64,000 nt of DNA. Origin: an uncultured archaeon. GTDB taxonomy: Archaea > Asgardarchaeota > Lokiarchaeia > Sigyniarchaeales > SOKP01. The translations under genes and the position numbers were made by a program. The notes below the pieces were generated by a model that was not told where the DNA came from, searched no databases, and was given only the letters and a program-made list of their open reading frames with translations. Below, one piece after another: positions 1,431 to 58,779 of this stretch. The DNA lies in contig CAYUTF010000006.1 in assembly GCA_964447495.1 (NCBI GenBank), positions 1,156 to 65,155 of the forward strand. The letters run 5' to 3'. Numbering within the stretch: the stretch's first letter is position 1; the number at the start of each line of letters is the position of its first letter.

Positions 1431-3518
1431 TTGAAGAAAATGAACTTGTTTTTTGATCTCAAAAGTAAAAAAGTGGGATATTCTAGAATAGGTAAAGTAT
1501 ATCTATCTTCCAAAGTTAGAAAATATTTCAGTACACCCAATATAGTAATTCCTATGACAAATACTTTGATAGGTAATATCAATTTCTTAGAATATTTTGA
1601 AAATCATGAGATCTTTTTAATAACAAAAGAAATTTTCTTAAAAATTGGATTTCTACAAGATAAATTTAGAAATACTAGTTTTATGTATTCACATAACGGT
1701 ACATTAGAACGGTATGAAGAAATTCTTCACATAAATGAGCAAATTTTTTCACAAGATAATATATGTTCTATTATACCATTTAATATACCAACATCTTCGA
1801 TAGATAAGGATTTTGCTGAAAAAGAAATTAAGAATTATATTCAAAATATAAATCAGATTTTAGAGAGATACCCCAATAATAATTTTGGGATTACTATCAA
1901 AATTTTTGATTATTCTGAATTAATAAGGTTATATTTTCCTCTTATAACTAAGTATAAAAATATTAGAATCTTAAATTTTGCAGATTTATTTGATACGTTT
2001 AAAAATTATAGGGCTATTCTTAAAGTCATTAATGAAGTTAAGCAAGAACTAAATAATAACTTGGTTTTAATGGCTTCTGGACGCATCATTCCTAAATTCT
2101 ATCCCTTCTTAATATATTTGGGAATAGATTTAATAGATAGTTCATATATGATGTATATTTCTGCAGAAAATTATTATGATGCTATTGAAGACTTATTACC
2201 AATATATAAACTTAAAGAATTACCATGTCCGTGTGTTGCTTGTTCAGGAAGATTGAATGAGCTCTTACAAGAAAAATATTCTCAACAAAAGATAATGCTC
2301 CTTGTTTTACATAATCTAATTTCAGCCAAAAATTATATGAATAAAATAAAGCAGTATTTAAACACTGAAGATTATCGAGCATTTTTGGAAAAGACAACTC
2401 ATGATGATCCATTATTGTATTCCAGTTTAAAGACATTGGACAAAGAATATTTTAAGACACTTAGATTAGAGACTCCATTATCAATGGAAAGCACATTAAT
2501 TAAATGTATAGGTCCAATTTCATATAATAGACCAGATTTTAAGGAGTTTAGGAAGAGAATTACGACTACTTTCACACCAGAACCATGGACAAAATTGATA
2601 ATAATTTTACCCTGTTCAGCTAAAAAACCTTATTCAGAATCTAAATCTCACAAATTATTCTATAAAGTAATTAGGAAATTTCCGGAGTTTCCTGATTTTC
2701 AAGAGATTATTTTAACCTCACCATTGGGGGCAATTCCAAGACAATTAGAGAACATATATCCTGTTAACTCTTATGATATTCCAGTAACAGGAGAATGGGA
2801 TTATGAGGAGGTACAGATTTCTGCGAAGATGTTAATAAAATTATTAAAGAAATACAATGAAAAAATTCCAATAATCTGTCATTTAAAAGACGGTGGTTAT
2901 TCTTCGATTATAGATGTTGCAGTTAAAGAATTAAAGCATCAATTTTATTTTAGTAAAACAGATAATGATCTCACTTCAAGTTATTCTTTAAAATCTTTAG
3001 AGGAAACATTGATTACCGTAAAGGATCAATTTATACCTGAGGGAGATTCAATAACTAATACTTCATTAACAAATACTTGGTTAAGAAAATTAATTAAAAT
3101 TGCAGACTATCAATATGGTGTAGATTCAGGTATAAAACTATTTACTGAAGGAATTACAACTCGAAAAAATCGAACTGGCACAAAATTTGAAATTTTTAAA
3201 GCAAATAGTAACGATTTTATGGGAATTTTTGACTTTAGAAAAGGGCAGATTGAATTAAGTTTAAATGGTGCAAATTTATTATTTCCTTTTGATGATAACG
3301 GAAATACTATCATCTTTGATGGAGACACTATAACAGGAAGTAATCTTTTCAGACCTGGAATAATTGATTACAGCTCTAATATTAAACCAAATAGTAATGT
3401 TTTCATATTAGATAAAAGTAAGCAGCATATAATTGCTATTGGTAATTCGGTTATTGGTTCAAATGATATTAGAAATACAAAAAAGGGATTAGTTGCTGAG
3501 ATTTATGAAAAACTATAA
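1431..3518 (+). CDS. arcS: archaeosine synthase ArcS (TGT-like N-domain, PC-X3-KPY-X2-S-X2-H motif domain, C-terminal PUA)
   Basis: The exact motif PCSAKKPYSESKSH is present. A TGT-type Zn motif CPCVAC is present. The C-terminal end is PUA-like (GNSVIGSNDIRNTKKGLVAEI). Confidence 0.75.
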   Translation: MKKMNLFFDLKSKKVGYSRIGKVYLSSKVRKYFSTPNIVIPMTNTLIGNINFLEYFENHEIFLITKEIFLKIGFLQDKFRNTSFMYSHNGTLERYEEILHINEQIFSQDNICSIIPFNIPTSSIDKDFAEKEIKNYIQNINQILERYPNNNFGITIKIFDYSELIRLYFPLITKYKNIRILNFADLFDTFKNYRAILKVINEVKQELNNNLVLMASGRIIPKFYPFLIYLGIDLIDSSYMMYISAENYYDAIEDLLPIYKLKELPCPCVACSGRLNELLQEKYSQQKIMLLVLHNLISAKNYMNKIKQYLNTEDYRAFLEKTTHDDPLLYSSLKTLDKEYFKTLRLETPLSMESTLIKCIGPISYNRPDFKEFRKRITTTFTPEPWTKLIIILPCSAKKPYSESKSHKLFYKVIRKFPEFPDFQEIILTSPLGAIPRQLENIYPVNSYDIPVTGEWDYEEVQISAKMLIKLLKKYNEKIPIICHLKDGGYSSIIDVAVKELKHQFYFSKTDNDLTSSYSLKSLEETLITVKDQFIPEGDSITNTSLTNTWLRKLIKIADYQYGVDSGIKLFTEGITTRKNRTGTKFEIFKANSNDFMGIFDFRKGQIELSLNGANLLFPFDDNGNTIIFDGDTITGSNLFRPGIIDYSSNIKPNSNVFILDKSKQHIIAIGNSVIGSNDIRNTKKGLVAEIYEKL

Positions 3519-5113: not shown

Positions 5114-5160
5114 AAAGTATTAAAATTCCCCGATAACCATTCTAAAAAAAGGTGTAAATT

Positions 5161-6123
5161 ATTTCGAGTTGGAACCAAATTAAAACAATCCCATTTGAAA
5201 GAATAAAGATTGTAAATAACCTTTGTTCTGAATGTGGAAAAAATATTTTGTTTGATGAAAATAGAGGGTTATTGGTTTGTGAAGAGTGCGGATTAGTTCA
5301 TTCAGAGAAATTTATTGATCATGGTCCTGAATGGAGAGCTTTTGATGCTGATCAAAAGAAAAAAAGAACTAGAACTGGAGCCCCTATGACTTATATGATA
5401 CATGATAAGGGCTTATCAACCATGATTGATTGGAAGAATAGAGATATTTTTGGAAAGGAAATTCCCGCAAAATTAAGAGGCCAAATTTATCGACTCCGTA
5501 AATGGCAGAGTCGAATTAGAGTGTCTGATGCGACTGAGCGAAATCTTACTTTTGCTTTAAGTGAATTGGATAGAATGGCTTCTAATTTAGATCTTCATAA
5601 GAACATTCGGGAGTGTTCTGCAAAGATATATAGAGATGCTGTTGAGGCTCATCTTATTCGTGGAAGGAGTATTGAAGGAGTAGCTGCTGCTAGTTTATAT
5701 GCAGCATGTCGTATGTACAAAATTCCACGAACACTCAATGAAATTGCTGATGTAGCAAGGGTAGACAAAAAAGAGATTGGAAGATCGTTTCGATTTATTT
5801 CGAATGAATTATTGCTTAACTTAAATCCTACTAAACCTTTGGATTTTCTTACACGATTTATTTCAGAATTGGAATTATCTCCTTATTGTCAGAAAACGGC
5901 TAAAAAGGTAATAAAAATGGCTGAAGTAAGAGGTTTAACCTCTGGAAGAGGTCCTACAGGAGTATGCGCTGCCGCAATTTATGCGGCCTCAATATTAACT
6001 AAAGAAAGAAGGACTCAAAGAAAAATCGCTAAAATTAGTCAGGTTACAGAAGTGACAGTAAGAAATAGATTTTCTGAATTAATAGATAATTTAGATTTAG
6101 GGATAAAGATTAAAAAGAAATAA
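5161..6123 (+). CDS. tfb: transcription initiation factor IIB (TFB)
   Basis: It has two cyclin-fold repeats and a B-finger/linker region (GPEWRAFD...). The Zn ribbon CSEC-x14-CEEC begins at 5224, upstream of the track's TTG start at 5248. The frame is open from 5158, and the only start candidates are ATT 5158 or 5161 after GGTG at 5151-5154. The call is secure but the start coordinate is uncertain. Confidence 0.85.
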
Positions 6124-9291: not shown

Positions 9292-9432
9292 GATGAAATA
9301 CTAAATAAAGTTGAAACCTACTTCACACTTTTAGTTAAATTGTGAAGAAGAATAAATTTTTTAAGTTGTGTAGTATTTAAGAATTGTGATTTAAAGGATA
9401 AATTAAAAAAATTTAAGTAAAAGCTGATTTTT

Positions 9433-9705
9433 ATTCCAAAGAAAAGAAGAAGTGGTGGAAAAAGCGGTTCTAGCAAGGGACATTATGCCCGAGTGCAATG
9501 TAGTAATTGCGGGAGGTTTGTTGCTAGAAGCAAGGCAAAAGCAGTTACTAGGAGAGTCTCTTTAGTGGATGGACGTATGTATACAGAATTAAAGAAAACT
9601 GGAACGATTATCCAAGCCCCAACTAAGACACAATATTTTTGTATCAGTTGTGCGGTCCATGGACACCAAATTAGTCAACGAGATAAAAATTTAAGAAAAA
9701 CTTAA
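9433..9705 (+). CDS. rps26e: 30S ribosomal protein eS26
   Basis: CSNCGRFV...YFCISCAVHG matches eS26. The conserved N-terminus (M)PKKRRSGGKSGSSKGH is encoded in frame upstream of the track's GTG at 9493. The only start candidate right before PKKRR is ATT 9433, with a stop at 9418-9420. Confidence 0.8.
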   Translation: MPKKRRSGGKSGSSKGHYARVQCSNCGRFVARSKAKAVTRRVSLVDGRMYTELKKTGTIIQAPTKTQYFCISCAVHGHQISQRDKNLRKT

Positions 9706-22056: not shown

Positions 22057-23712
22057 TTAGATTTTTGCTTTTGAGCCTTTAAATAGATGTAGAAGATAAG
22101 TTATTTCTTCTGACCCATTTACAATCCTTTGAAGATGATAAGGAAAAGTAGAAAAATCAACCTGTTTTCCTTCTGAAACATACTTTATAATTAATTCGAC
22201 TAATTCAATATAGCGTTTGACGGTATTTCCTTTTAATTCTATTTCAGATATGATTTTTTGTGCTTTCTCAATACGACCATTCAATACTGAGGAAATAGCA
22301 GCTAATGTATATGATTGAACAATATGAGAATAGCCAATCGTTTTAAGATTTGCAGCACGATAATAGTATTTATATACGTTTTTGACCATTTCATTGACAA
22401 GGAAATCTTTAGCTGTATCCAATTGTTGATAAAACTTTATACTTTCTAAAATTAAGGTAGCTGCTGTGAAAAATTCTTTATTTTTTAACCCTTCCTTTGC
22501 AATAATATTTAATCCTCTAACAATTTGATTAAAAATTCCAAATCGATTATATTCGAGATTTCCCTCAACAGCAATATCATATGCATTTAAATAACTCTCA
22601 GTTGAGTCATTTACATTTCCTATTTTCCAATAACTATCTCCAGCTTTTACAAAATGTTTATAAGAAAGTTCAGTATTTTCTAATTCTCTAAATGTTACTG
22701 CTGCATTATAGAAATTAGTCCCGGCTTCATTAAAATCCTCAATTCTTTCAAAGTAATTCCCAGCTAAAATAAAACATGAGGCAGACTCAATTAAATTGCT
22801 ATTAATATCTCGATAGCATAAAGCTGCTCCACGATAATATTGTGCAATTTTTTGATAATTATCTTCATTTTTTGTAAGAATCTCAGCTAAATTTATATAA
22901 GACCCTGCCTCTCTTTTTGAATAGTTAATAAATTGATCCTCATCATCAATTAGTTTATATAATTTTTTTAAAACTTGACAAATTTGAGATACAGCAAGGT
23001 TGTCATTTTTAGTATCATATTTATCGAAAATCTCATTGAAAAACTCTATACCATCAAAAATTATATTAGTAGATTTATTAAATTCCTCTAATTCTTGGTA
23101 TGATTGAGCTATTTGCTGATATGAATATGAAAGTAAATCAAAAAAAAGATATTCTTTAGATATAGCAATGACGAGATTAAAATATCTTATAGCCTTTTTA
23201 GTATAAGAAATTCTTGAATATAGTTCAGCTATATTCTGGTAATTTTGAATTAATTTACGTATTTCATTAAATTCCCTCAATACTTTGCCTTCTTGTCGTA
23301 AATAACTAATAGCATTTAGAATATACTTTTTCTCTTGTTTCGTATTCTTGAATTTTTCAGAATACATATCTGCTAATCGTTTATAAATTTCTGCAATCTC
23401 GTGAAATTTGGCTTGTAGTTTATAAGAAGTAATTTGTTTTTCCCAAAAACTTATAGATAATTTATAAAGTTTATATGCCTGGGAGGAGTTTAATTCTTCA
23501 ATCAGTTCTGCGGCAGAGTATAAGAATTCTCCAGCTTCTTCATATTCTCGTGATTCAGCTAACTCATTGGCGTATGCTCTTGATTCCTCAGTCAAGCTTA
23601 AAATCAAGGCATAGCGTTCTCTTAAATTTTTAATATCTTCTATTTGTGAAATTTTTTTACTTAATTGCTCAATATATTCTCTGTTATCACTAAAAATATC
23701 TTCTTGAAGAAT
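22057..23712 (-). CDS. TPR-like helical repeat protein
   Basis: Repeated A-x-Y / Y-x-x-A helical-pair patterns occur throughout. The track starts at TTG 23607, but the frame stays open and protein-like for 35 more codons back to ATT 23712, directly after a TAA. The start is uncertain. Confidence 0.5.
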   Translation of the reverse strand: MLQEDIFSDNREYIEQLSKKISQIEDIKNLRERYALILSLTEESRAYANELAESREYEEAGEFLYSAAELIEELNSSQAYKLYKLSISFWEKQITSYKLQAKFHEIAEIYKRLADMYSEKFKNTKQEKKYILNAISYLRQEGKVLREFNEIRKLIQNYQNIAELYSRISYTKKAIRYFNLVIAISKEYLFFDLLSYSYQQIAQSYQELEEFNKSTNIIFDGIEFFNEIFDKYDTKNDNLAVSQICQVLKKLYKLIDDEDQFINYSKREAGSYINLAEILTKNEDNYQKIAQYYRGAALCYRDINSNLIESASCFILAGNYFERIEDFNEAGTNFYNAAVTFRELENTELSYKHFVKAGDSYWKIGNVNDSTESYLNAYDIAVEGNLEYNRFGIFNQIVRGLNIIAKEGLKNKEFFTAATLILESIKFYQQLDTAKDFLVNEMVKNVYKYYYRAANLKTIGYSHIVQSYTLAAISSVLNGRIEKAQKIISEIELKGNTVKRYIELVELIIKYVSEGKQVDFSTFPYHLQRIVNGSEEITYLLHLFKGSKAKI

Positions 23713-26633: not shown

Positions 26634-28547
26634 CTAATACATTTCGAAATCCTTTATTGAAAATTGCTTGACTTTTTTCATTACAGGAAAAAGACTAAGA
26701 GCATTAAATATTCCGAATATGATAAATAAAAAGCCTATAAAGATAAAAGGTATAAAGATATGGGGCAAATATACTCTTTCAAATATTATAATTGAATTTA
26801 ATATCATACCTACTCCCAAACTTACACCAAGAGAAGGTATTATAACATACATAGCCTCTAAGAACAAAATCTTTCTTATTGATTTATTCTTAGAACCAAT
26901 CGCTCTCATAATCAGGAAATCTTTTACTTTTTCCATTATTCCACCTTTTTGATAGTTATAGAGAGATAATATCGCAACTACACTCAAAATTATTATTAAA
27001 ATCGATGGAAACAGAGCTAGATTTGAAATGAAATTAAGATTTTCAGTAAATATATGATCCATTTTTAGATATGTAAATTGCTCTCCTAAAGAAGCATTAA
27101 TAATGCTTTCAAGCTGACCTTGAATGCTATCAAATCCCTCTGAATTTACTTTAATAAATGCTAGATTTACTTGGTTTGAAGTTAAATTCATATTAGTACG
27201 GAATTTATCTATATCAATATAAGTTGCATAGCCGCTGTAGAGACTATCAATAACAACACCAGATATTTCAAATATTTCACCTAATTGATCAAAAAGAATA
27301 GCCTGATCAAAAGGATAGTCAAAAAAGTTATAGGCTAAACCATCTCCAATGACCGCATAGTAACTCGATACCCCTTGTAGTGTGATAAAATCACCCTCGA
27401 TTTCAAAATTTTGGAGATTATCACTTTGATTAACACCAATAACTGGAAAAATCCCTTTTCTATTCTGACCTACATATAAATATCCTCCATCTTCATAAAT
27501 GTGAGTTCCAGATATTTCTTCCGCTTCTAAAAAGTTAATAAGTCGATACTCTTGATCTTCAATCTCTGAAAGGGTATTTAAATCATCTAAGGATGAGATA
27601 TTAAATAAGTAATCCTCTTGTAAGAAGTTAATACTAGTATTATCTATAAATATAGCTGGATTCTGAAACATCTCATACATTAAAGAATAATTTTGAACCA
27701 CATCCTTATGTCCAATTAATATAAGGTTATCTGTTTGTGATTTCCTAACCCATTCATATGAAGAGGTGTATAATACTATAGTTCCTAAACCTAAAGTAAA
27801 AATGATTAATGATATAATAGAGAAAACTATAATATATCTCTTAAACTCTCCTTTCCTCCTTATAGAATTAATTACAGACATTTTAAAATTTAGGTTTATT
27901 AATGATAACCATTTAGGGATGAATGTCAGGTCTTTAGATGCATTATAGTTATAAGGTATATCCTTAGAGAAATTCTTCACAATTTTTTGATTCCCTATTT
28001 TACGTAATATGTATCCAGGTACAATAAAAATACCCCCTAAGCATGAGAAAAACAAAATGGGAGTATATACAAAATCTAATTGGAATTGCATATAAATATT
28101 GGTAAACGAAAAACTAAATGCAAATATAGCAAATGAAATTATTCCAATAACTATACCGATTATAAATGCAATTAAAAAGATGAGATATACTTCAGTTAAA
28201 TAAAAACTATATAATTTACGTGGTAATGAACCTAGCGCCCTCATTATCGCGATGTCACGCTTCTTGGAGATAATTAAGGTACTACTTATCACAATAACAA
28301 CAATAAACGCCAAAATCATCATTAATATGATAATTAAGCTATTAAAATCAGTAAAAATTATATTAATTCCGCCTGAAAAATAAAATTCGTTTACATAACT
28401 ATATTGGATAAAGTTGTTTAAACCAATAGAGGAAGTAAAATAAATTAAGAACTCAGTAACTGAAATTATTAATACTAATACCACTAAATAAGGATAGGAT
28501 ATGTCTTTTTTTCGATAGATATCTTTAAACGCAAAATCAAGTGAAAT
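26634..28547 (-). CDS. ABC transporter permease, FtsX/MacB type
   Basis: There are two FtsX-like TM bundles separated by a large extracytoplasmic domain. The track start is GTG 28484, but the frame is open upstream and encodes a typical N-terminus (SLDFAFKDIYRKKDISYPYL). ATT 28547 lies 7 nt after GGTGA. Confidence 0.75.
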   Translation of the reverse strand: MSLDFAFKDIYRKKDISYPYLVVLVLIISVTEFLIYFTSSIGLNNFIQYSYVNEFYFSGGINIIFTDFNSLIIILMMILAFIVVIVISSTLIISKKRDIAIMRALGSLPRKLYSFYLTEVYLIFLIAFIIGIVIGIISFAIFAFSFSFTNIYMQFQLDFVYTPILFFSCLGGIFIVPGYILRKIGNQKIVKNFSKDIPYNYNASKDLTFIPKWLSLINLNFKMSVINSIRRKGEFKRYIIVFSIISLIIFTLGLGTIVLYTSSYEWVRKSQTDNLILIGHKDVVQNYSLMYEMFQNPAIFIDNTSINFLQEDYLFNISSLDDLNTLSEIEDQEYRLINFLEAEEISGTHIYEDGGYLYVGQNRKGIFPVIGVNQSDNLQNFEIEGDFITLQGVSSYYAVIGDGLAYNFFDYPFDQAILFDQLGEIFEISGVVIDSLYSGYATYIDIDKFRTNMNLTSNQVNLAFIKVNSEGFDSIQGQLESIINASLGEQFTYLKMDHIFTENLNFISNLALFPSILIIILSVVAILSLYNYQKGGIMEKVKDFLIMRAIGSKNKSIRKILFLEAMYVIIPSLGVSLGVGMILNSIIIFERVYLPHIFIPFIFIGFLFIIFGIFNALSLFPVMKKVKQFSIKDFEMY

Positions 28548-28560
28548 TTCTCAATCACCA

Positions 28561-39041: not shown

Positions 39042-40220
39042 TTAATCTCTTTTTTTTCCAAGATAAGGCATTGCATGCTCATATCTTTTTAAAACAAATC
39101 GAGATATCACAATTCTTTGAATTTCGCTGGTTCCTTCATAGATTTGGTATAGTTTTGCATCTCTAAATAATTTTTCGACTGGGTATGTTCTCAAATATCC
39201 ATAACCTCCGAAAATCTGGATAGCTTCAGTTGTTACATTCATGACAACATCTGAAGCAAATGCTTTAGCAATAGCAGAACTCAAATTATTATCCATGCCT
39301 TGATCTGCTTCCCAAGCTGCTTTATGAGTCAACAAACGTGCCGCTTCAATATCCTTATACATGTTAGCGATTTTTTCTTGTATCATTTGATAATTTTCAA
39401 TTGGTCTTCCAAAAGCTTCTCTTTTTTTCGCATAGTCAATAGAATATTCCATTGCTGATCGAGCACACCCAACAGCAAAAGCACCTATAGCAGGCCGAGT
39501 ATGAGCGAAAGTTTGCATTGCGAGTACGAAACCTCTTCCTGGTTTTGCTAAAACATTTTCTTTGGGTATTCTTACATCCTTTAGATTTACTGCGACCGTA
39601 TTAGAAGCTCTTTGACCCAATTTGGGAATATGCTTTCCTAACCGGACACCTTCAGTTTTTGTATCTACAATAAAAGCGCCTATTCCCTTATGCTTCTTCT
39701 CTGGATCTACTGTAGCAAAAACAGTAATATAATCTGCATATCCTCCGTTTGTGATCCAAAATTTATTGCCATTAAGGATATATTCCTCACCATCTTTTTC
39801 TGCCCGACATTTCATCCCCGCAACATCAGAGCCCATGGTGGGTTCAGAAGTCGCAAAAGCAATTAATTTAAATTCACTGGTTAACCCTTTTAGAATTCTT
39901 TGTTTTTGCTCTTCATTACCTCCAATAACTATTGGTTCAGCACCAAGATTATTATCAAAAATTGATGTTGCAATACCAGGACAAGCAGAAGAAAACTCTT
40001 CCACTACAATGCAGGCATCCAATAAACCATAACCAGGACCACCATATTGCTTAGGAATTCCTAAGTTAAGTAAGCCTTCTTCCCAAGCTTTCTTAATAAC
40101 TGGTAAAGGAAATTCTTCCGATTCGTCATATTTTTGTCCTACAGGTAAAACTTCCCGAATTGCGAATTCTCTTGCTTTTTTTTTAAGAGTTATTTGTTCT
40201 TCCGTTAATTTAAAATCCAT
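39042..40220 (-). CDS. acyl-CoA dehydrogenase
   Basis: The full-length ACAD pattern is present (TEPTMGSDVAG, FWITNGG, QIFGGYGY, YEGTSEIQR). Confidence 0.9.
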   Translation of the reverse strand: MDFKLTEEQITLKKKAREFAIREVLPVGQKYDESEEFPLPVIKKAWEEGLLNLGIPKQYGGPGYGLLDACIVVEEFSSACPGIATSIFDNNLGAEPIVIGGNEEQKQRILKGLTSEFKLIAFATSEPTMGSDVAGMKCRAEKDGEEYILNGNKFWITNGGYADYITVFATVDPEKKHKGIGAFIVDTKTEGVRLGKHIPKLGQRASNTVAVNLKDVRIPKENVLAKPGRGFVLAMQTFAHTRPAIGAFAVGCARSAMEYSIDYAKKREAFGRPIENYQMIQEKIANMYKDIEAARLLTHKAAWEADQGMDNNLSSAIAKAFASDVVMNVTTEAIQIFGGYGYLRTYPVEKLFRDAKLYQIYEGTSEIQRIVISRFVLKRYEHAMPYLGKKRD

Positions 40221-40235
40221 GATTTTATCCTCTTT

Positions 40236-41444
40236 TTAACCCATTTTTTGAATTAATTTGTCTACTATTTTTTCAAAATCTAATTCTTCTGGTTTTGGTA
40301 CAAATTTGATCTCTATTTTTTCATCCATAACATCTATTTTAGTCGCTTCTAATTCCTTAATTATCTCTTTAACTGCTCCACCGCCCCATCCATAGGAACC
40401 GAAAGCCATTCCTATTTTATTCATGGGTTTAAGCCCTTTCTGATAACTTAAATATTCAGCGACTAATGGATAAAGACCATTATTCAATGTTGGGCTTCCT
40501 ACTAGAATTGCTTTTGCTTTCATTGCCTCTGTTATAACATCAGAATAGTCTGCATTGGTCAATCGAAATCGTTTTACACGGATACCTCTATGAGTAAGTT
40601 CTTTATACAATGCTTTAGCAATTTTTTCGGTACTTCCCCACATTGTATCGTACACAATTATAACGCTTTTTTCATCGATCTCACCTGCTGACCATTTCTT
40701 ATATGCTTCAACAATCTTGCCAATATGAGTTCGCCAGCATATTCCATGAGAGGGGCATATTATCTCGATAGGTAGAGCCCCCACTTTTGGTAATGCTTTC
40801 GCTATTAACCCAGATAAGTGCAGTAGAATATTCGCATAATATTTCTCTGCCTCCCACATTATTTCAGAAAGATCATTTTCATCATCCCATCGTTTAGACG
40901 TAGCTAAATGTTGCCCAAAAGCATCATTTGAAAATAAAATATTTTTCCCATTCTTGTCTGTCATAAAAGATACCATCGAATCTGGCCAATGAATCATTGG
41001 AATTGGAACAAATGCAAATTGTTTACCATTTCCGATATCTAAAGTATCGCCTTCTTTAACGGTTCTAATCTTTTCAAAATTTTCTTTCTCGATTTCCTCA
41101 TGATATTGAAGTTCAAGAATTTCCTTTCCTCGAGTAGAGGCTATAACTTCTGCATTTGGTAAGTATTTCAAAATTAAGGGAAAGGAGCCTGAATGATCGG
41201 GTTCTACATGATTGACAATAAAATAGTCAATCTCTTTTGGATCACATACATGCTTGATATTATTTAAGAAATATTCAAAATAGGGGCGCTTTACAGCATC
41301 GATTAAGACCGTTTTATCCCCTGATTTCACAATATAGGCGTTATAAGAAGAGCCTTTATGCGTAGAATATCCATGGAAGTTTCGAACCTCGAAATCTACA
41401 TATCCCACATAAGATACATCTTTCATTAGTTCTAAATGTGTCAT
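40236..41444 (-). CDS. fprA: flavodiiron protein (FprA; metallo-beta-lactamase plus flavodoxin domains)
   Basis: HVEPDHSG is the diiron motif, and the C-terminal flavodoxin segment is IVYDTMWGSTEKIA. Confidence 0.9.
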   Translation of the reverse strand: MTHLELMKDVSYVGYVDFEVRNFHGYSTHKGSSYNAYIVKSGDKTVLIDAVKRPYFEYFLNNIKHVCDPKEIDYFIVNHVEPDHSGSFPLILKYLPNAEVIASTRGKEILELQYHEEIEKENFEKIRTVKEGDTLDIGNGKQFAFVPIPMIHWPDSMVSFMTDKNGKNILFSNDAFGQHLATSKRWDDENDLSEIMWEAEKYYANILLHLSGLIAKALPKVGALPIEIICPSHGICWRTHIGKIVEAYKKWSAGEIDEKSVIIVYDTMWGSTEKIAKALYKELTHRGIRVKRFRLTNADYSDVITEAMKAKAILVGSPTLNNGLYPLVAEYLSYQKGLKPMNKIGMAFGSYGWGGGAVKEIIKELEATKIDVMDEKIEIKFVPKPEELDFEKIVDKLIQKMG

Positions 41445-41566: not shown

Positions 41567-42448
41567 TTATTCTAAAGGCCACTCCAATAATGAGAGGATT
41601 AGGTTTTGGTTGGAAATTCCTCCTCGGGTTAATTGCCCTATAAAGCTCTCCTTGCCAAACATTTTTCGAGTGATATATCGTAATAAGCGTTTACCACTAT
41701 ATCCTTTATCTTTTGCTTCTTTATAAAATTTAAATGCATTCTTATGCAGTTTCTCAATTTCTATCATTTTTTCCTCGAAGATCTTTTGAGTATTAAATAT
41801 GCCTCGACCTGAGGTAAAAATTTTTAATTTTTCCATGCTTGTGGTGATTAAATCAAGCTTTTTTAAAGAATTATATATCTGAGATATATTCTCAGGAATA
41901 TCGGTATTTTTACCAAATATCATAGTGTATTTTGGCATTATTCCATCTGCAACAATAGCCCATTGCTGCTTCTTTTCTATTAGAGCAATTTCTTCTATTG
42001 CATGACCTGGAATTTCAACTACATCAAAATTATATTTATTCGAATGAGTTGAGATTGATTTACCTATAGGTTTTCCTTCAAAAGGGTGATAAGGGTAACC
42101 CCATGTAATTCGCCTATAATCAGGATAATCTTTCTCGTTTTTTAAAAGAGGTATTGCTTTCTTGCTAGCATAAATCGGAACATTAAATTCTGATTGAAGC
42201 ATTGCTGCCCCACCACAATGATCTTCATGAGAATGTGTAATTATACATTTTTTTACCTTCTGTTCTTCATCAAGCGAAGAAAGAAATTTTTTTAATTCAT
42301 TTTCTCCTGCTGGAGGTCCTGAGTCAATTAGCAATCCATCAATCAAATAGCACGATGTCCAAAAAGGAGCGGGAAGAAGTTTACTGTCTGAGGACCACTT
42401 CCATTCAATAATTTCATTATTGCAATGATGTAGTATTTGTACGACCAT
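41567..42448 (-). CDS. MBL-fold metallo-hydrolase
   Basis: The HxHxDH motif is present (THSHEDHCGG). Confidence 0.7.
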   Translation of the reverse strand: MVVQILHHCNNEIIEWKWSSDSKLLPAPFWTSCYLIDGLLIDSGPPAGENELKKFLSSLDEEQKVKKCIITHSHEDHCGGAAMLQSEFNVPIYASKKAIPLLKNEKDYPDYRRITWGYPYHPFEGKPIGKSISTHSNKYNFDVVEIPGHAIEEIALIEKKQQWAIVADGIMPKYTMIFGKNTDIPENISQIYNSLKKLDLITTSMEKLKIFTSGRGIFNTQKIFEEKMIEIEKLHKNAFKFYKEAKDKGYSGKRLLRYITRKMFGKESFIGQLTRGGISNQNLILSLLEWPLE

Positions 42449-42603
42449 CTTGATACCAATAAAAATTAAGATTCAATAAAGCAAAGGAGAAAAAGAAATA
42501 AAAAAGCTAGGATTGTACCCAAAAAAAAATTTGCTTATGAAATGAATTTATTTCGAAAAAATTAAAAAATTTAAAAAAAAGGATAAGATAATATTAATCA
42601 TTA

Positions 42604-42744
42604 TTAATCTGATATTTTCGTGAAGAAACTTTTATCTACTCCACACACAGGGCATACCCAATCATCAGGTAAGTCTTCAAACTTGGTGCCTTCTGCAGCT
42701 TCATCATAAATAAAACCGCAAGCCCCACACTCATATTTCGCTAT
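42604..42744 (-). CDS. rubredoxin (46 aa; not in ORF track)
   Basis: Reverse translation gives (I)[45 protein letters not shown]. It has C-x2-C...C-x2-C with the canonical Y-x-C, DLPDDW and CPVCG motifs. No ATG, GTG or TTG lies between the upstream TGA (42753-42751) and the first Cys. ATA 42744-42742 lies 6 nt after AGGTGA. Confidence 0.75.
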
Positions 42745-42881
42745 GATCTTTCACCTATTTTTAGTTACTTTTAATTTTCTAATTATTTTATGGATTTGTT
42801 AATTGAGTATTTATTAAAAATATTAATTTAATAATTTATAAATAAATTTGGTTAACTTCTATTTAACGTTTAATATAAAGT

Positions 42882-43031
42882 CTAAATTGTATTAGGTTTT
42901 TTTATAAATAATTGTCGTGCTGCTCTGCATTTCGGACATTTATATTCCTCATTCAAGTTATCGAATGGTATTTTGTTCTCTTCATCAATGTAAAGGTAAT
43001 TACATCGTTTGCATCTATATATCGCCACCAA
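42882..43031 (-). CDS. rubredoxin-like small CxxC...CxxC protein (49 aa; not in ORF track)
   Basis: Reverse translation gives (M)VAIYRCKRCNYLYIDEENKIPFDNLNEEYKCPKCRAARQLFIKKPNTI*. The start is TTG 43031 or GTG 43028, just after GGTGAT. It lies 10 nt downstream of the NROR-Rd gene stop. Confidence 0.55.
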   Translation of the reverse strand: MVAIYRCKRCNYLYIDEENKIPFDNLNEEYKCPKCRAARQLFIKKPNTI

Positions 43032-43040
43032 ATCACCGCT

Positions 43041-44405
43041 TTATTCTTTTAGTTTGAAATCTTTTTTAGTAGCACGGCACTTTGGATTAGGGCATTTAAA
43101 ATCTTCTGGTAAATCTTTAAATGTTACGTCCATTTTAGCCTCATCGTAGACAGCACCACAGTTGACGCATGCATATTCATGTATATTTAACAAGTTCTTT
43201 AATTCTTTCGTATTGACATCTTGCTCCATCTTACTATAAACATAGGATAATGCATTATTATCACCAAAGAGGATTGCTCCTTTAAGTTTATTATCTTTAA
43301 GAACGACTTTTTGATAACAGCAATCTTTTTTATCTGCGCGTTTTAAGATATCCCATCCGCCACCCTTTTCGCTACTAGGATCAAAGGTTCCGATTGAAGT
43401 TAGTTCTAATCCTACTATTTTTAGGGTATTTTTCGGAGTTGTGCCAGTATACTCTTTCATTTTCTTCTCAAGTACCGAAGCGGCTATGATTTTTGATTGC
43501 TCCATGCATGCAGGGATAATTCCCCACGTTTGATTTTTATATTCGATACAATCCCCAACAGCATAAATATCTTTTTCACTTGTTTCCAAGAATTCATTTA
43601 CGATAATCCCTCTATTAGTGGCAATACCTGCCTTTTGAGCTAATTCGATTTCAGGTTTGATTCCCGCTTGAATCAGGATAAGATCGGCAGTAAGGGTTCT
43701 CCCATCTTTTAATTTAATGCCCTCAACGCTTCCATTTCCCAATATTTCCTCTGTTGTTGCATTTAAGACAACTTCTATTCCACGATTTTCAATCTCTTCC
43801 TTTAACATAGTACTGCATTCGTCATCTAACTGTTTTGGTAGTAATCGAGGGAAAAATTCAACGATGGTTGTATCGAGATTTGATTTGTTAATTTGATTTG
43901 CTAATTCTAGACCTAATAATCCTCCACCAATTATTATCGCTTTCTTTTTTGAGTTGAATAGTTTGATATAATCCTTTATTTCCATAGCATCCTTTATGCT
44001 ACGGAGAGTAAAAAGCCCTTTATGGTTCATTTCTAGAGCATTTTTAATCGGAGGAATACTTGGATTACTTCCGGTGGCAATAATGAGCTTATTGTATGAT
44101 ATTGGATTAGGAGATTTCTCAGAATAGATCAATTTGTCTTTTGGGTTTATTTTTGTTATTTTTTCCCCAAGATGGAGCTTAATATTTTTAGTTTCATACC
44201 ATTTTTCTTTAAAGACAATTAAATCTGGGATTGTAACTTTATCGGAGATGAATTCTGGTAATTTAATCCGAGTATAGTAGGGATATTTTTCTTGAGTGAA
44301 TATGTCGATCTCCGCGCTATCATTGAGATTACGTATATTTTGAGCGCTAAAGGTTCCGGCAACATTATTACCGATTATTAATATCTTCATAGATTTTAAA
44401 CTCAT
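43041..44405 (-). CDS. NAD(P)H:rubredoxin oxidoreductase-like FAD flavoprotein with C-terminal rubredoxin-type domain
   Basis: It has two dinucleotide-binding motifs (ILIIGNNVAGTFSA; AIIIGGGLLGLELA) and GDC. The C-terminus is YACVNCGAVYDE...DLPEDFKCPNPKC (C-x2-C...C-x4-C). Confidence 0.8.
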   Translation of the reverse strand: MSLKSMKILIIGNNVAGTFSAQNIRNLNDSAEIDIFTQEKYPYYTRIKLPEFISDKVTIPDLIVFKEKWYETKNIKLHLGEKITKINPKDKLIYSEKSPNPISYNKLIIATGSNPSIPPIKNALEMNHKGLFTLRSIKDAMEIKDYIKLFNSKKKAIIIGGGLLGLELANQINKSNLDTTIVEFFPRLLPKQLDDECSTMLKEEIENRGIEVVLNATTEEILGNGSVEGIKLKDGRTLTADLILIQAGIKPEIELAQKAGIATNRGIIVNEFLETSEKDIYAVGDCIEYKNQTWGIIPACMEQSKIIAASVLEKKMKEYTGTTPKNTLKIVGLELTSIGTFDPSSEKGGGWDILKRADKKDCCYQKVVLKDNKLKGAILFGDNNALSYVYSKMEQDVNTKELKNLLNIHEYACVNCGAVYDEAKMDVTFKDLPEDFKCPNPKCRATKKDFKLKE

Positions 44406-58274: not shown

Positions 58275-58583
58275 TTAATCAATTGGTACATCTACAGCAC
58301 CTTCCATATGATCCTTGAAAGGTACTTCAACTTTTAATATTCCATTTTTATACATGGCTTTCGATTTATCAGCAGATACGGGACAACATATGGCATATGA
58401 TCCCACATATACTGTATTTTCACTTTCCCCTTTCACAAAAAAAGAATCCTCATGCATTTTCAAAGCTATTGTATCTTTTTCTACACCGGGCATAGTTATT
58501 TCAATATGATAATTATCATGTTCATCATCTGCATAAGCACATATATCAGGGGATATTATATACTTTTCTTTCTCTTCAGATAT
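58275..58583 (-). CDS. Hsp20/alpha-crystallin-domain small heat shock protein
   Basis: HIEITMPGVEKDTIALKMHEDSFFVKGE...AMYKNGILKVEVP is present. The track start ATG 58493 falls inside the ACD (within ..EITMPGV..). The frame is open back to TGA 58592-58590, and ATA 58583 lies 6 nt after GGTGA (58594-58590). Confidence 0.7.
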   Translation of the reverse strand: MSEEKEKYIISPDICAYADDEHDNYHIEITMPGVEKDTIALKMHEDSFFVKGESENTVYVGSYAICCPVSADKSKAMYKNGILKVEVPFKDHMEGAVDVPID

Positions 58584-58779
58584 GATTAATCACCTTTTTA
58601 ATTTAATTGGATTTATTTCATTAAGAAATATCAAAATAGGCATTTTAAAACTTTGTTTTATGATTTGTAAGACTTTGGACTAAATCCTTATTTGAAAGAA
58701 TATTTCAGAGCCATTTTTATTTTATTTTATAAATTTTATACATAATATCATATTTACGTTAACTTTATCGCCTATTTTT

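Follow-up and report, generated by a model that had tools for sequence, protein, structure and literature searches.

A Lokiarchaeial rubredoxin gene that very probably starts at a near-cognate ATA codon found in four lineages

Introduction

Electron-transfer chains in which an NAD(P)H:rubredoxin oxidoreductase (NROR) is linked through rubredoxin to the flavodiiron protein FprA, and which detoxify O2 and NO, are known in anaerobes (Desulfovibrio, Clostridium, Moorella and, for the NROR, Pyrococcus). The rubredoxin gene described here, which we call Rd46, belongs to a Lokiarchaeial gene cluster that is known from its genes alone and that matches these chains in both content and adjacency, comprising a reductase of the pyridine-nucleotide disulfide family that bears a Rubredoxin_C domain, along with small rubredoxins and a flavodiiron protein. 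It departs from the known chains in that the NROR has a fused rubredoxin domain and in that the cluster adds two free rubredoxins, a metallo-beta-lactamase-fold (MBL-fold) protein and an acyl-CoA dehydrogenase-family protein (ACAD). The rubredoxin of P. furiosus (PDB 1BQ8 / 1BRF) has the same CxxCG ... CPxCG arrangement and the same MAK(W/Y)xC N-terminus as Rd46, and the two proteins align residue 1 to residue 1 (MAKWVC in 1BQ8; E=3.7e-15). Rd46 has 46 rather than 54 residues, with an inter-knuckle loop that is 8 residues shorter, and whereas the P. furiosus gene starts with ATG, Rd46 appears to start with ATA. The short 45-aa rubredoxins (PDB 6RXN and 6NW0, with chains of 46 and 45 residues) are of the same family and of similar size, and the loop that joins their two Cys knuckles is presumably shortened too. 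They match Rd46 with a lower score than the P. furiosus protein, and the Lokiarchaeial clade is set apart by an 11-letter C-terminal motif. To our knowledge, nothing unusual has been reported about the start codons of rubredoxins of this type.

Initiation at codons other than ATG, GTG and TTG is itself an established phenomenon. NCBI translation table 11 lists ATA, ATT, ATC and CTG as starts, and the classic near-cognate case is E. coli infC, whose AUU is part of the IF3 autoregulatory loop. Rd46 resembles infC in that a start other than AUG, GUG or UUG is conserved, a Shine-Dalgarno (SD) sequence precedes it at the usual distance and the protein is unremarkable in other respects. It is unlike infC in being part of an archaeal system (aIF1/aIF1A/aIF2) with no evident regulatory loop, and in that its codon alternates with ATG and GTG among close relatives, with SD strength compensating. 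We know of no role for rubredoxin in translation, so self-regulation of the infC type is not expected. Mitochondria likewise use AUA and AUU as starts in AT-rich genomes, but in many mitochondrial codes AUA also means Met in elongation, where it is read by an f5C34 tRNA-Met, whereas inside Lokiarchaeial genes ATA is Ile.

For archaea, a 2020 review of initiation names only AUG, GUG and UUG (PMC7531240), and in Haloferax ribosome profiling about 30% of putative alternative start sites were near-cognate and were set aside (PMC7261190). A rare ATT start with a suitably placed ribosome-binding site has been proposed for the Asgard tubulin AtubA of Kariarchaeaceae, for which the deposited protein is N-terminally too short and the upstream ATT restores the conserved N-terminus (Sci Adv 2026, PMC13394414). 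That proposal concerns one gene in one genome and was derived from structure prediction and alignment (PMC13394414), whereas the Rd46 case involves ATA, four lineages, a signature of selection and further cases in the same stretch of DNA. In our search of the literature outside subscription journals, neither conserved ATA starts nor a systematic use of ATH codons in Lokiarchaeia came up. An ordinary rubredoxin initiated at a near-cognate codon is known in kind and entails no new mechanism, and one Asgard ATT start has already been proposed. What sequence comparison would add here is a comparative case for a conserved archaeal ATA start, a trade-off between start codon and SD strength, and a sign that such starts may be common in an Asgard lineage, core genes included.

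Results

An intact rubredoxin gene missed by gene callers

The window, by which we mean the whole 64-kb stretch of DNA analysed, has a G+C content of 29.7%, and MAGs labelled Promethearchaeota (Lokiarchaeia, Asgard) are its nearest relatives among the matches listed, at both the protein and the DNA level. Rd46 occupies 42604..42744 of the minus strand, with 46 codons running from an inferred ATA initiation codon (42744-42742) to a TAA stop (42606-42604). The initial annotation had described a textbook rubredoxin on the reverse strand and had suggested a profile search as a check, and the search bears this description out. The match to Pfam PF00301 (Rubredoxin) scores 56.4 bits where the cut-off is 23 (E=3e-15), which is far beyond chance, and it is complete, covering profile positions 1-47 from Rd46 residue 3 on. 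The protein is a single domain with five residues ahead of the first Cys. Its Fe-ligand cysteines lie in a CxxCG knuckle at C6-C9 (C6-G-A-C9-G10) and a CPxCG knuckle at C31-C34 (C31-P-V-C34-G35), and all four cysteines and both knuckles are invariant across the clade alignment.

Between the upstream stop and Cys6 (42729-42727, minus-strand reading) the in-frame codons are TGA AAG ATC ATA GCG AAA TAT GAG TGT. The claim that this interval contains no ATG, GTG or TTG is confirmed both by the sequence and by the ORF list, which uses these three starts and has nothing in the Rd46 frame. The gene had also been described as unannotated, and this holds beyond the ORF list, as the JGI annotation of the independently assembled contig L001 (Ga0315548_1009639), which carries the Rd46 allele base for base, ATA included, has no gene called at the locus. 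Rd46 is genuine and intact as a rubredoxin, and gene callers have missed it. An ATA inside the gene also reads as ordinary Ile (..K-I-S-D).

Three other readings of the site were considered and rejected. The only ORF listed there is an out-of-frame 32-aa ATG ORF (42636..42734), whose ATG at 42734 arises from the K-Y-E codons and yields an unrelated peptide. A longer protein made by read-through of the TGA would draw on an upstream frame that is AT-rich and unconserved and that meets a TAA again 16 codons further up. Translational coupling to an upstream ORF fares no better, the short upstream frame having no start codon and the stop of the preceding gene, Rd49, lying 137 nt away.

The start region of Rd46

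The inferred start lies 6 nt downstream of an AGGTGA Shine-Dalgarno sequence (42751..42756, minus strand), for which we calculate a duplex energy of -8.3 kcal/mol with an assumed anti-SD. AGGTGA ends in the TGA (42753-42751) that terminates the upstream frame, in phase with the ATA and three codons ahead of it. The intervening spacer, AAGATC (42745..42750, minus strand), is conserved in length but variable in sequence except for its first A and last C, and contains an unconserved ATC at 42747-42745. The arrangement AGGTGA, AAGATC, ATA thus stands on the minus strand as the initial annotation had read it. Other genes of the window that are led by (A)GGTGA have this motif 4-9 nt before their starts.

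Upstream of the SD lies an AT-rich intergenic region (42757..42881, minus strand), partly conserved with contig L152, where an archaeal promoter is presumed to be located. Downstream, oligo-T tracts (42556..42580, minus strand; T8 at 42580-42573, T6 at 42569-42564 and T6 at 42561-42556) begin 24 nt past the stop and, from general knowledge of archaeal termination, are a possible archaeal oligo-T terminator. No significant RNA structure (z=-0.11) and no Rfam element was found around the Rd46 start, nor any tRNA within the 64-kb window that might bear on decoding.

L001 is the only second copy of this allele, since FprA contig L167 and Logan contig L002 stop short of Rd46. Exact-protein look-ups with the neighbouring MBL-fold protein and Rd49 brought up no further contig, and the strain-level DNA pattern around the start had no match among metagenome contigs. 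L001 may come from the window's own sample, in which case its identity with the window excludes an assembly error but not a read-level artefact shared by the one allele.

Genomic context and probable role

Immediately upstream of the Rd46 intergenic region is a second small rubredoxin-like gene, Rd49 (42882..43028, minus strand; PF00301, 27 bits). The ORF list gives it as a 49-aa ORF from TTG 43031, but its real start is probably GTG 43028-43026. From there the protein begins (M)AIYRC, its first Cys preceded by five residues, and GGTGA ends 4 nt ahead of the start; orthologues agree with this position. Before Rd49 lies NROR with its fused C-terminal rubredoxin domain (43041..44405, minus strand), identified by Pfam matches to Pyr_redox_2 (E=2.9e-56), Rubredoxin_C (E=1.2e-13) and Rubredoxin (21.5 bits). 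On the other side, an MBL-fold protein shared with closer relatives only (41567..42448, minus strand) separates Rd46 from FprA (40236..41444, minus strand), which has an ODP/MBL domain and a flavodoxin domain and is the presumed electron acceptor of Rd46. FprA is followed by the ACAD gene (39042..40220, minus strand). Of the 17 related loci compared, 10 show ACAD after FprA, and several of the remainder end before that point.

The gene order NROR-Rd49-Rd46-(MBL)-FprA-ACAD recurs across related loci. Pfam and synteny thus support the NROR/rubredoxin/FprA cluster in which the initial annotation had placed the gene. That these genes form an operon, as it had also claimed, is unproven, and the 137-nt AT-rich spacer ahead of Rd46 and the oligo-T tracts behind it suggest that Rd46 may form its own transcription unit. 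By analogy with the known NROR-Rd-FprA chains of anaerobes, Rd46 is most likely an electron carrier from NROR to FprA; gene content and conserved synteny suggest that it would shuttle electrons between the two for reduction of O2 or NO.

ATA at the start position in four lineages

The best protein matches to Rd46 are 46-aa rubredoxins whose MAKYEC or MAKWEC N-termini start exactly at the ATA position, which aligns with the ATG, GTG, TTG or CTG of orthologues. Some of these proteins have been called with V (GTG) at the start, as VAKWEC, and LAKWEC also aligns to the ATA codon. In a collection of 5.8 billion protein sequences the best match, among the matches listed, is only 91% identical, and none of the four ATA-type alleles described below is among the matches listed. 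Species-representative genomes have ATG, GTG or TTG at the start position, and the orthologue in L010 (JAUWGH010000004.1) has a CTG start with no canonical alternative in frame.

Since protein databases hold only what gene callers accept, we turned to a scan of DNA that is blind to the start codon, searching metagenome contigs for DNA encoding the clade-specific 11-letter C-terminal motif and then reading upstream. Three contigs, each from other samples, proved to be of the same type as the window: L091 (Ga0114925; AGGTGA aatagc ATA), L099 (Ga0180438; AGGTGA attaac ATA) and L152 (Ga0180437; AGGTGA aaactc ATA). All three have the in-frame TGA within the SD and lack ATG, GTG and TTG before Cys6. 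Synteny between L099 and the window is complete, with amino acid identities of 77% for NROR, 74% for the MBL-fold protein, 88% for FprA and 91% for ACAD, and L091 is more distant (FprA 74%). As judged by FprA identity, the ATG-type contigs L087, L150 and L158 are as near to the window as L099 is, so that lineages with ATA and with ATG are interspersed. All four ATA lineages may nonetheless go back to a common ancestor and are then not four fully independent events.

The initial annotation had left the start as ATA or ATC, and the comparison separates the two. ATA is the sole near-cognate codon between the TGA and Cys6 that is common to all four lineages, whilst the other three loci have CTC, AAC and AGC where the window has ATC, and this points clearly to ATA as the start. 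In the window genome ATC would be at most a minor alternative.

A related rubredoxin gene in L023 (about 3001-3144) has lost the clade C-terminus after CGV (..CGVVMIGSPIMA*), which could reflect a frameshift error or a pseudogene.

Purifying selection and the strength of the Shine-Dalgarno sequence

The four ATA-type genes share 70-81% nucleotide identity, with pairwise dN of 0.04-0.12 and dS that is above 1.2 or saturated. As saturation left dS not computable for most pairs, we used codon-position invariance instead. Over codons 2-44 (43 codons), the four ATA lineages agree at 36 first, 37 second and 7 third positions, and of the 32 codons whose amino acid is shared by all four, only 4 keep the third base. 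This pattern indicates strong purifying selection on the Rd46 protein in these lineages. Conservation of the first and second positions alongside saturation of the third implies that the ATA-type genes have been translated throughout a long divergence. Upstream of the ATA, TAGGTGAA is invariant in all four loci, as against 11 of the 34 other positions, and the SD-ATA spacer is fixed at 6 nt despite the deep divergence of the lineages.

Across 56 clade sequences the start codon is ATG in 25, GTG in 19, TTG in 4, CTG in 1, ATA in 5 (4 of them distinct) and ATC in 2. In the two ATC cases (L133 and L146) a TTG or GTG embedded in the SD is a formal alternative start. Only first- and third-position neighbours of ATG thus occur at this site, which is how an initiation codon behaves.

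The strength of the SD varies with the codon. Mean SD:anti-SD energies are -8.6 kcal/mol for ATA/ATC/CTG, -7.2 for TTG, -4.8 for ATG and -4.5 for GTG, calculated with an anti-SD (GAUCACCUCCU) that is assumed from general archaeal knowledge, the window having no 16S gene. The ATA/ATC/CTG starts differ from the ATG and GTG starts in SD strength with a Mann-Whitney p=9e-5, a value that ignores phylogenetic relatedness. The ATA-type SDs are the strongest of the clade, and the close ATG relatives L087 and L158 have a degraded AAGTGA in place of the AGGTGA of the ATA lineages.

Other non-canonical starts in the window and its relatives

Inspection of further SD-led frames suggests that about 5 of the roughly 60 genes of the window have non-canonical starts. 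The closest parallel to Rd46 in layout is a small heat-shock protein gene (sHSP, Hsp20; 58275-58596, minus strand), in which AGGTGA (about 58596-58591) is followed by ttaatc and ATA (58583-58581), with an in-frame TGA at 58592-58590. Its first canonical ATG (58493) would cut the Hsp20 profile at position 16 rather than 4, and its orthologues are proteins of 102 aa whose MSE(E/D)KEKY begins exactly at the ATA. The orthologue in L162 reads AGGTGA ataacc ATA. In another relative, L163 (about 300-620), the ATG start of the sHSP is out of frame with the remaining gene; this damage could be a frameshift error or mark a pseudogene.

Two core genes are affected. The gene for transcription factor TFB (TFIIB; 5145-6123, plus strand) reads AGGTG TAA ATT(5158) ATT(5161) TCG AGT TGG, with the leader AGGTGTAA. 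A protein begun at TTG 5248, the first canonical start, would lack the first CxxC of the zinc ribbon, whereas orthologues begin MSSW.. at the second ATT; the close relatives L164-L166 keep AT(T/C) ATT and have been called truncated at 291 aa. The gene for ribosomal protein eS26 (9418-9705, plus strand) reads TAA (9418-9420) AAG CTG ATT TTT ATT(9433) CCA AAG AAA AGA. Position 1 of Pfam Ribosomal_S26e falls on ATT 9433, and a start at GTG 9493, the earliest canonical codon, would cost the protein 20 conserved residues. Unlike the other cases, this ATT has no visible SD before it.

An FtsX-family ABC permease gene (26634-28560, minus strand) probably starts at ATT 28547, which follows GGTGA and ttgagaa and lies two codons after a stop. 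The resulting N-terminus, (M)SLDFAFKDIYRKKDIS, resembles what we take to be the usual N-terminus of FtsX-type permeases. From the canonical GTG at 28484 the protein would begin (M)VLVLIISVT, which has the appearance of a hydrophobic membrane segment. In the gene for a TPR/SNAP-like protein (22057-23712, minus strand), the frame stays open for 35 codons ahead of TTG 23607, the first canonical start, and the upstream TAA is immediately followed by an ATT, which may be another non-canonical start.

Neighbours of Rd46 show the same tendency in related genomes. FprA genes of related Promethearchaeota start with ATT (L006, L008 and L009), ATC (L023) or ATA (L013), 6-7 nt after (A)GGTGA, although most of them could formally start at an ATG six codons downstream instead. 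Rd49 orthologues start with ATG, TTG, CTG (L099) or ATT (L008 and L023), the ATT and CTG starts directly following a stop codon. In the Rd46 and FprA families, 11-12% of orthologues in the related loci compared have near-cognate starts. Near-cognate initiation looks like a habit of the lineage and not a one-off.

Discussion

We consider it very probable, on comparative sequence evidence, that Rd46 is a functional Lokiarchaeial (Promethearchaeota) rubredoxin gene whose translation starts at a near-cognate AUA. Through base pairing between AGGUGA and the 16S rRNA 3' end, the 30S subunit would come to lie with AUA in its P site, where Met-tRNAi (anticodon CAU) would be accepted despite the C34:A mismatch at the third position. 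The strong SD would compensate for the weak codon and set the level of expression. The product would begin Met-Ala-Lys-Tyr-Glu-Cys, with the Met probably removed before Ala.

One alternative is that the start was recently lost, an ATG-to-ATA mutation having left an untranslated relic that has yet to decay. Most orthologues do have ATG or GTG at this position, ATG and ATA are separated by a single transition, and gene callers report nothing at the locus. But ATA is found in four lineages that are 70-81% identical at the nucleotide level, with third positions saturated and first and second positions conserved, and a relic could not have stayed open, kept four Cys and held dN/dS far below 1 for so long. 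The SD and its 6-nt spacing are moreover invariant, with the SDs the strongest of the clade, and we regard a pseudogene as very improbable. That the true codon is ATG and has been misread or misassembled, ATA being one base away from the commonest state, is harder still to credit: the JGI contig has the identical base, three contigs of other samples show ATA amid different flanks, and several other genes and their orthologues have non-canonical starts. We give sequencing or assembly error almost no weight. The initial annotation had named ATG at this locus in related genomes, together with support for ATG here, as what would tell against the gene's ATA start; many relatives do carry ATG or GTG, while others carry ATA, and the L001 assembly also reads ATA.

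Other possibilities accept the gene and differ on how it is initiated. Translation could begin at the ATC 3 nt past AGGTGA (42747-42745), giving a 47-aa product, or at both ATC and ATA. This codon is near-cognate and in frame, ATC occupies the aligned start position in L133 and L146, and the sHSP gene shows the same ATC ATA pair. The other ATA-type loci, however, have CTC, AAC or AGC at this point, a spacing of 3 nt is below the 4-9 nt of the (A)GGTGA-led genes of the window, and both the orthologues and the P. furiosus rubredoxin align to the ATA position; a role for ATC as the start is accordingly improbable, if less so than gene loss. Nearly as much weight, though still little, attaches to AUA being used by an unconventional route, whether RNA editing of AUA to AUG or AUI, initiation by an elongator tRNA-Ile, or a C34-modified initiator tRNA that reads AUN in the manner of mitochondria. 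The five ATA- or ATT-start genes of the window leave room for lineage-specific initiation machinery. Against this, the start region lacks both a significant RNA structure that could guide editing and an Rfam element, ATA is ordinary Ile inside Rd46, and near-cognate wobble with a strong SD is sufficient. Such a route would in any case be compatible with the preferred reading of Rd46 as regards ATA being the start.

Whether the same holds for the lineage at large is a more finely balanced matter. We would put at about even the chance that Lokiarchaeia routinely initiate at AUA, AUU, AUC and CUG, the weak codon usually being accompanied by a strong AGGUGA SD, with codon and SD strength trading off over evolution. 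The non-canonical starts of the window include those of TFB and eS26. If near-cognate use is indeed routine, start discrimination in these close archaeal relatives of eukaryotes would be looser than the AUG/GUG/UUG rule, and in current Asgard proteomes, which are called from ATG, GTG and TTG only, an appreciable fraction of genes would be systematically missing or cut short. Within the window, Rd46 is a real redox protein gene that gene finders have overlooked, and calling from ATG, GTG and TTG only truncates TFB, eS26 and sHSP. Truncation of this kind affects the Asgard gene inventories that are used in arguments on the origin of eukaryotes. Rd46 also offers a natural series in which a single start position is occupied by ATG, GTG, TTG, CTG, ATA or ATC with the SD compensating, and through which the stringency of start selection could be tested in a eukaryote-like initiation system (aIF1/aIF1A/aIF2).

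A minor feature of these start regions concerns the base at -1. Every ATA that follows AGGTGA and 6 nt has a C at this position, both in the window (42745 and 58584) and in L091, L099, L152 and L162. The independent events are few, and the ATA-start FprA gene of L013 has an A at -1.
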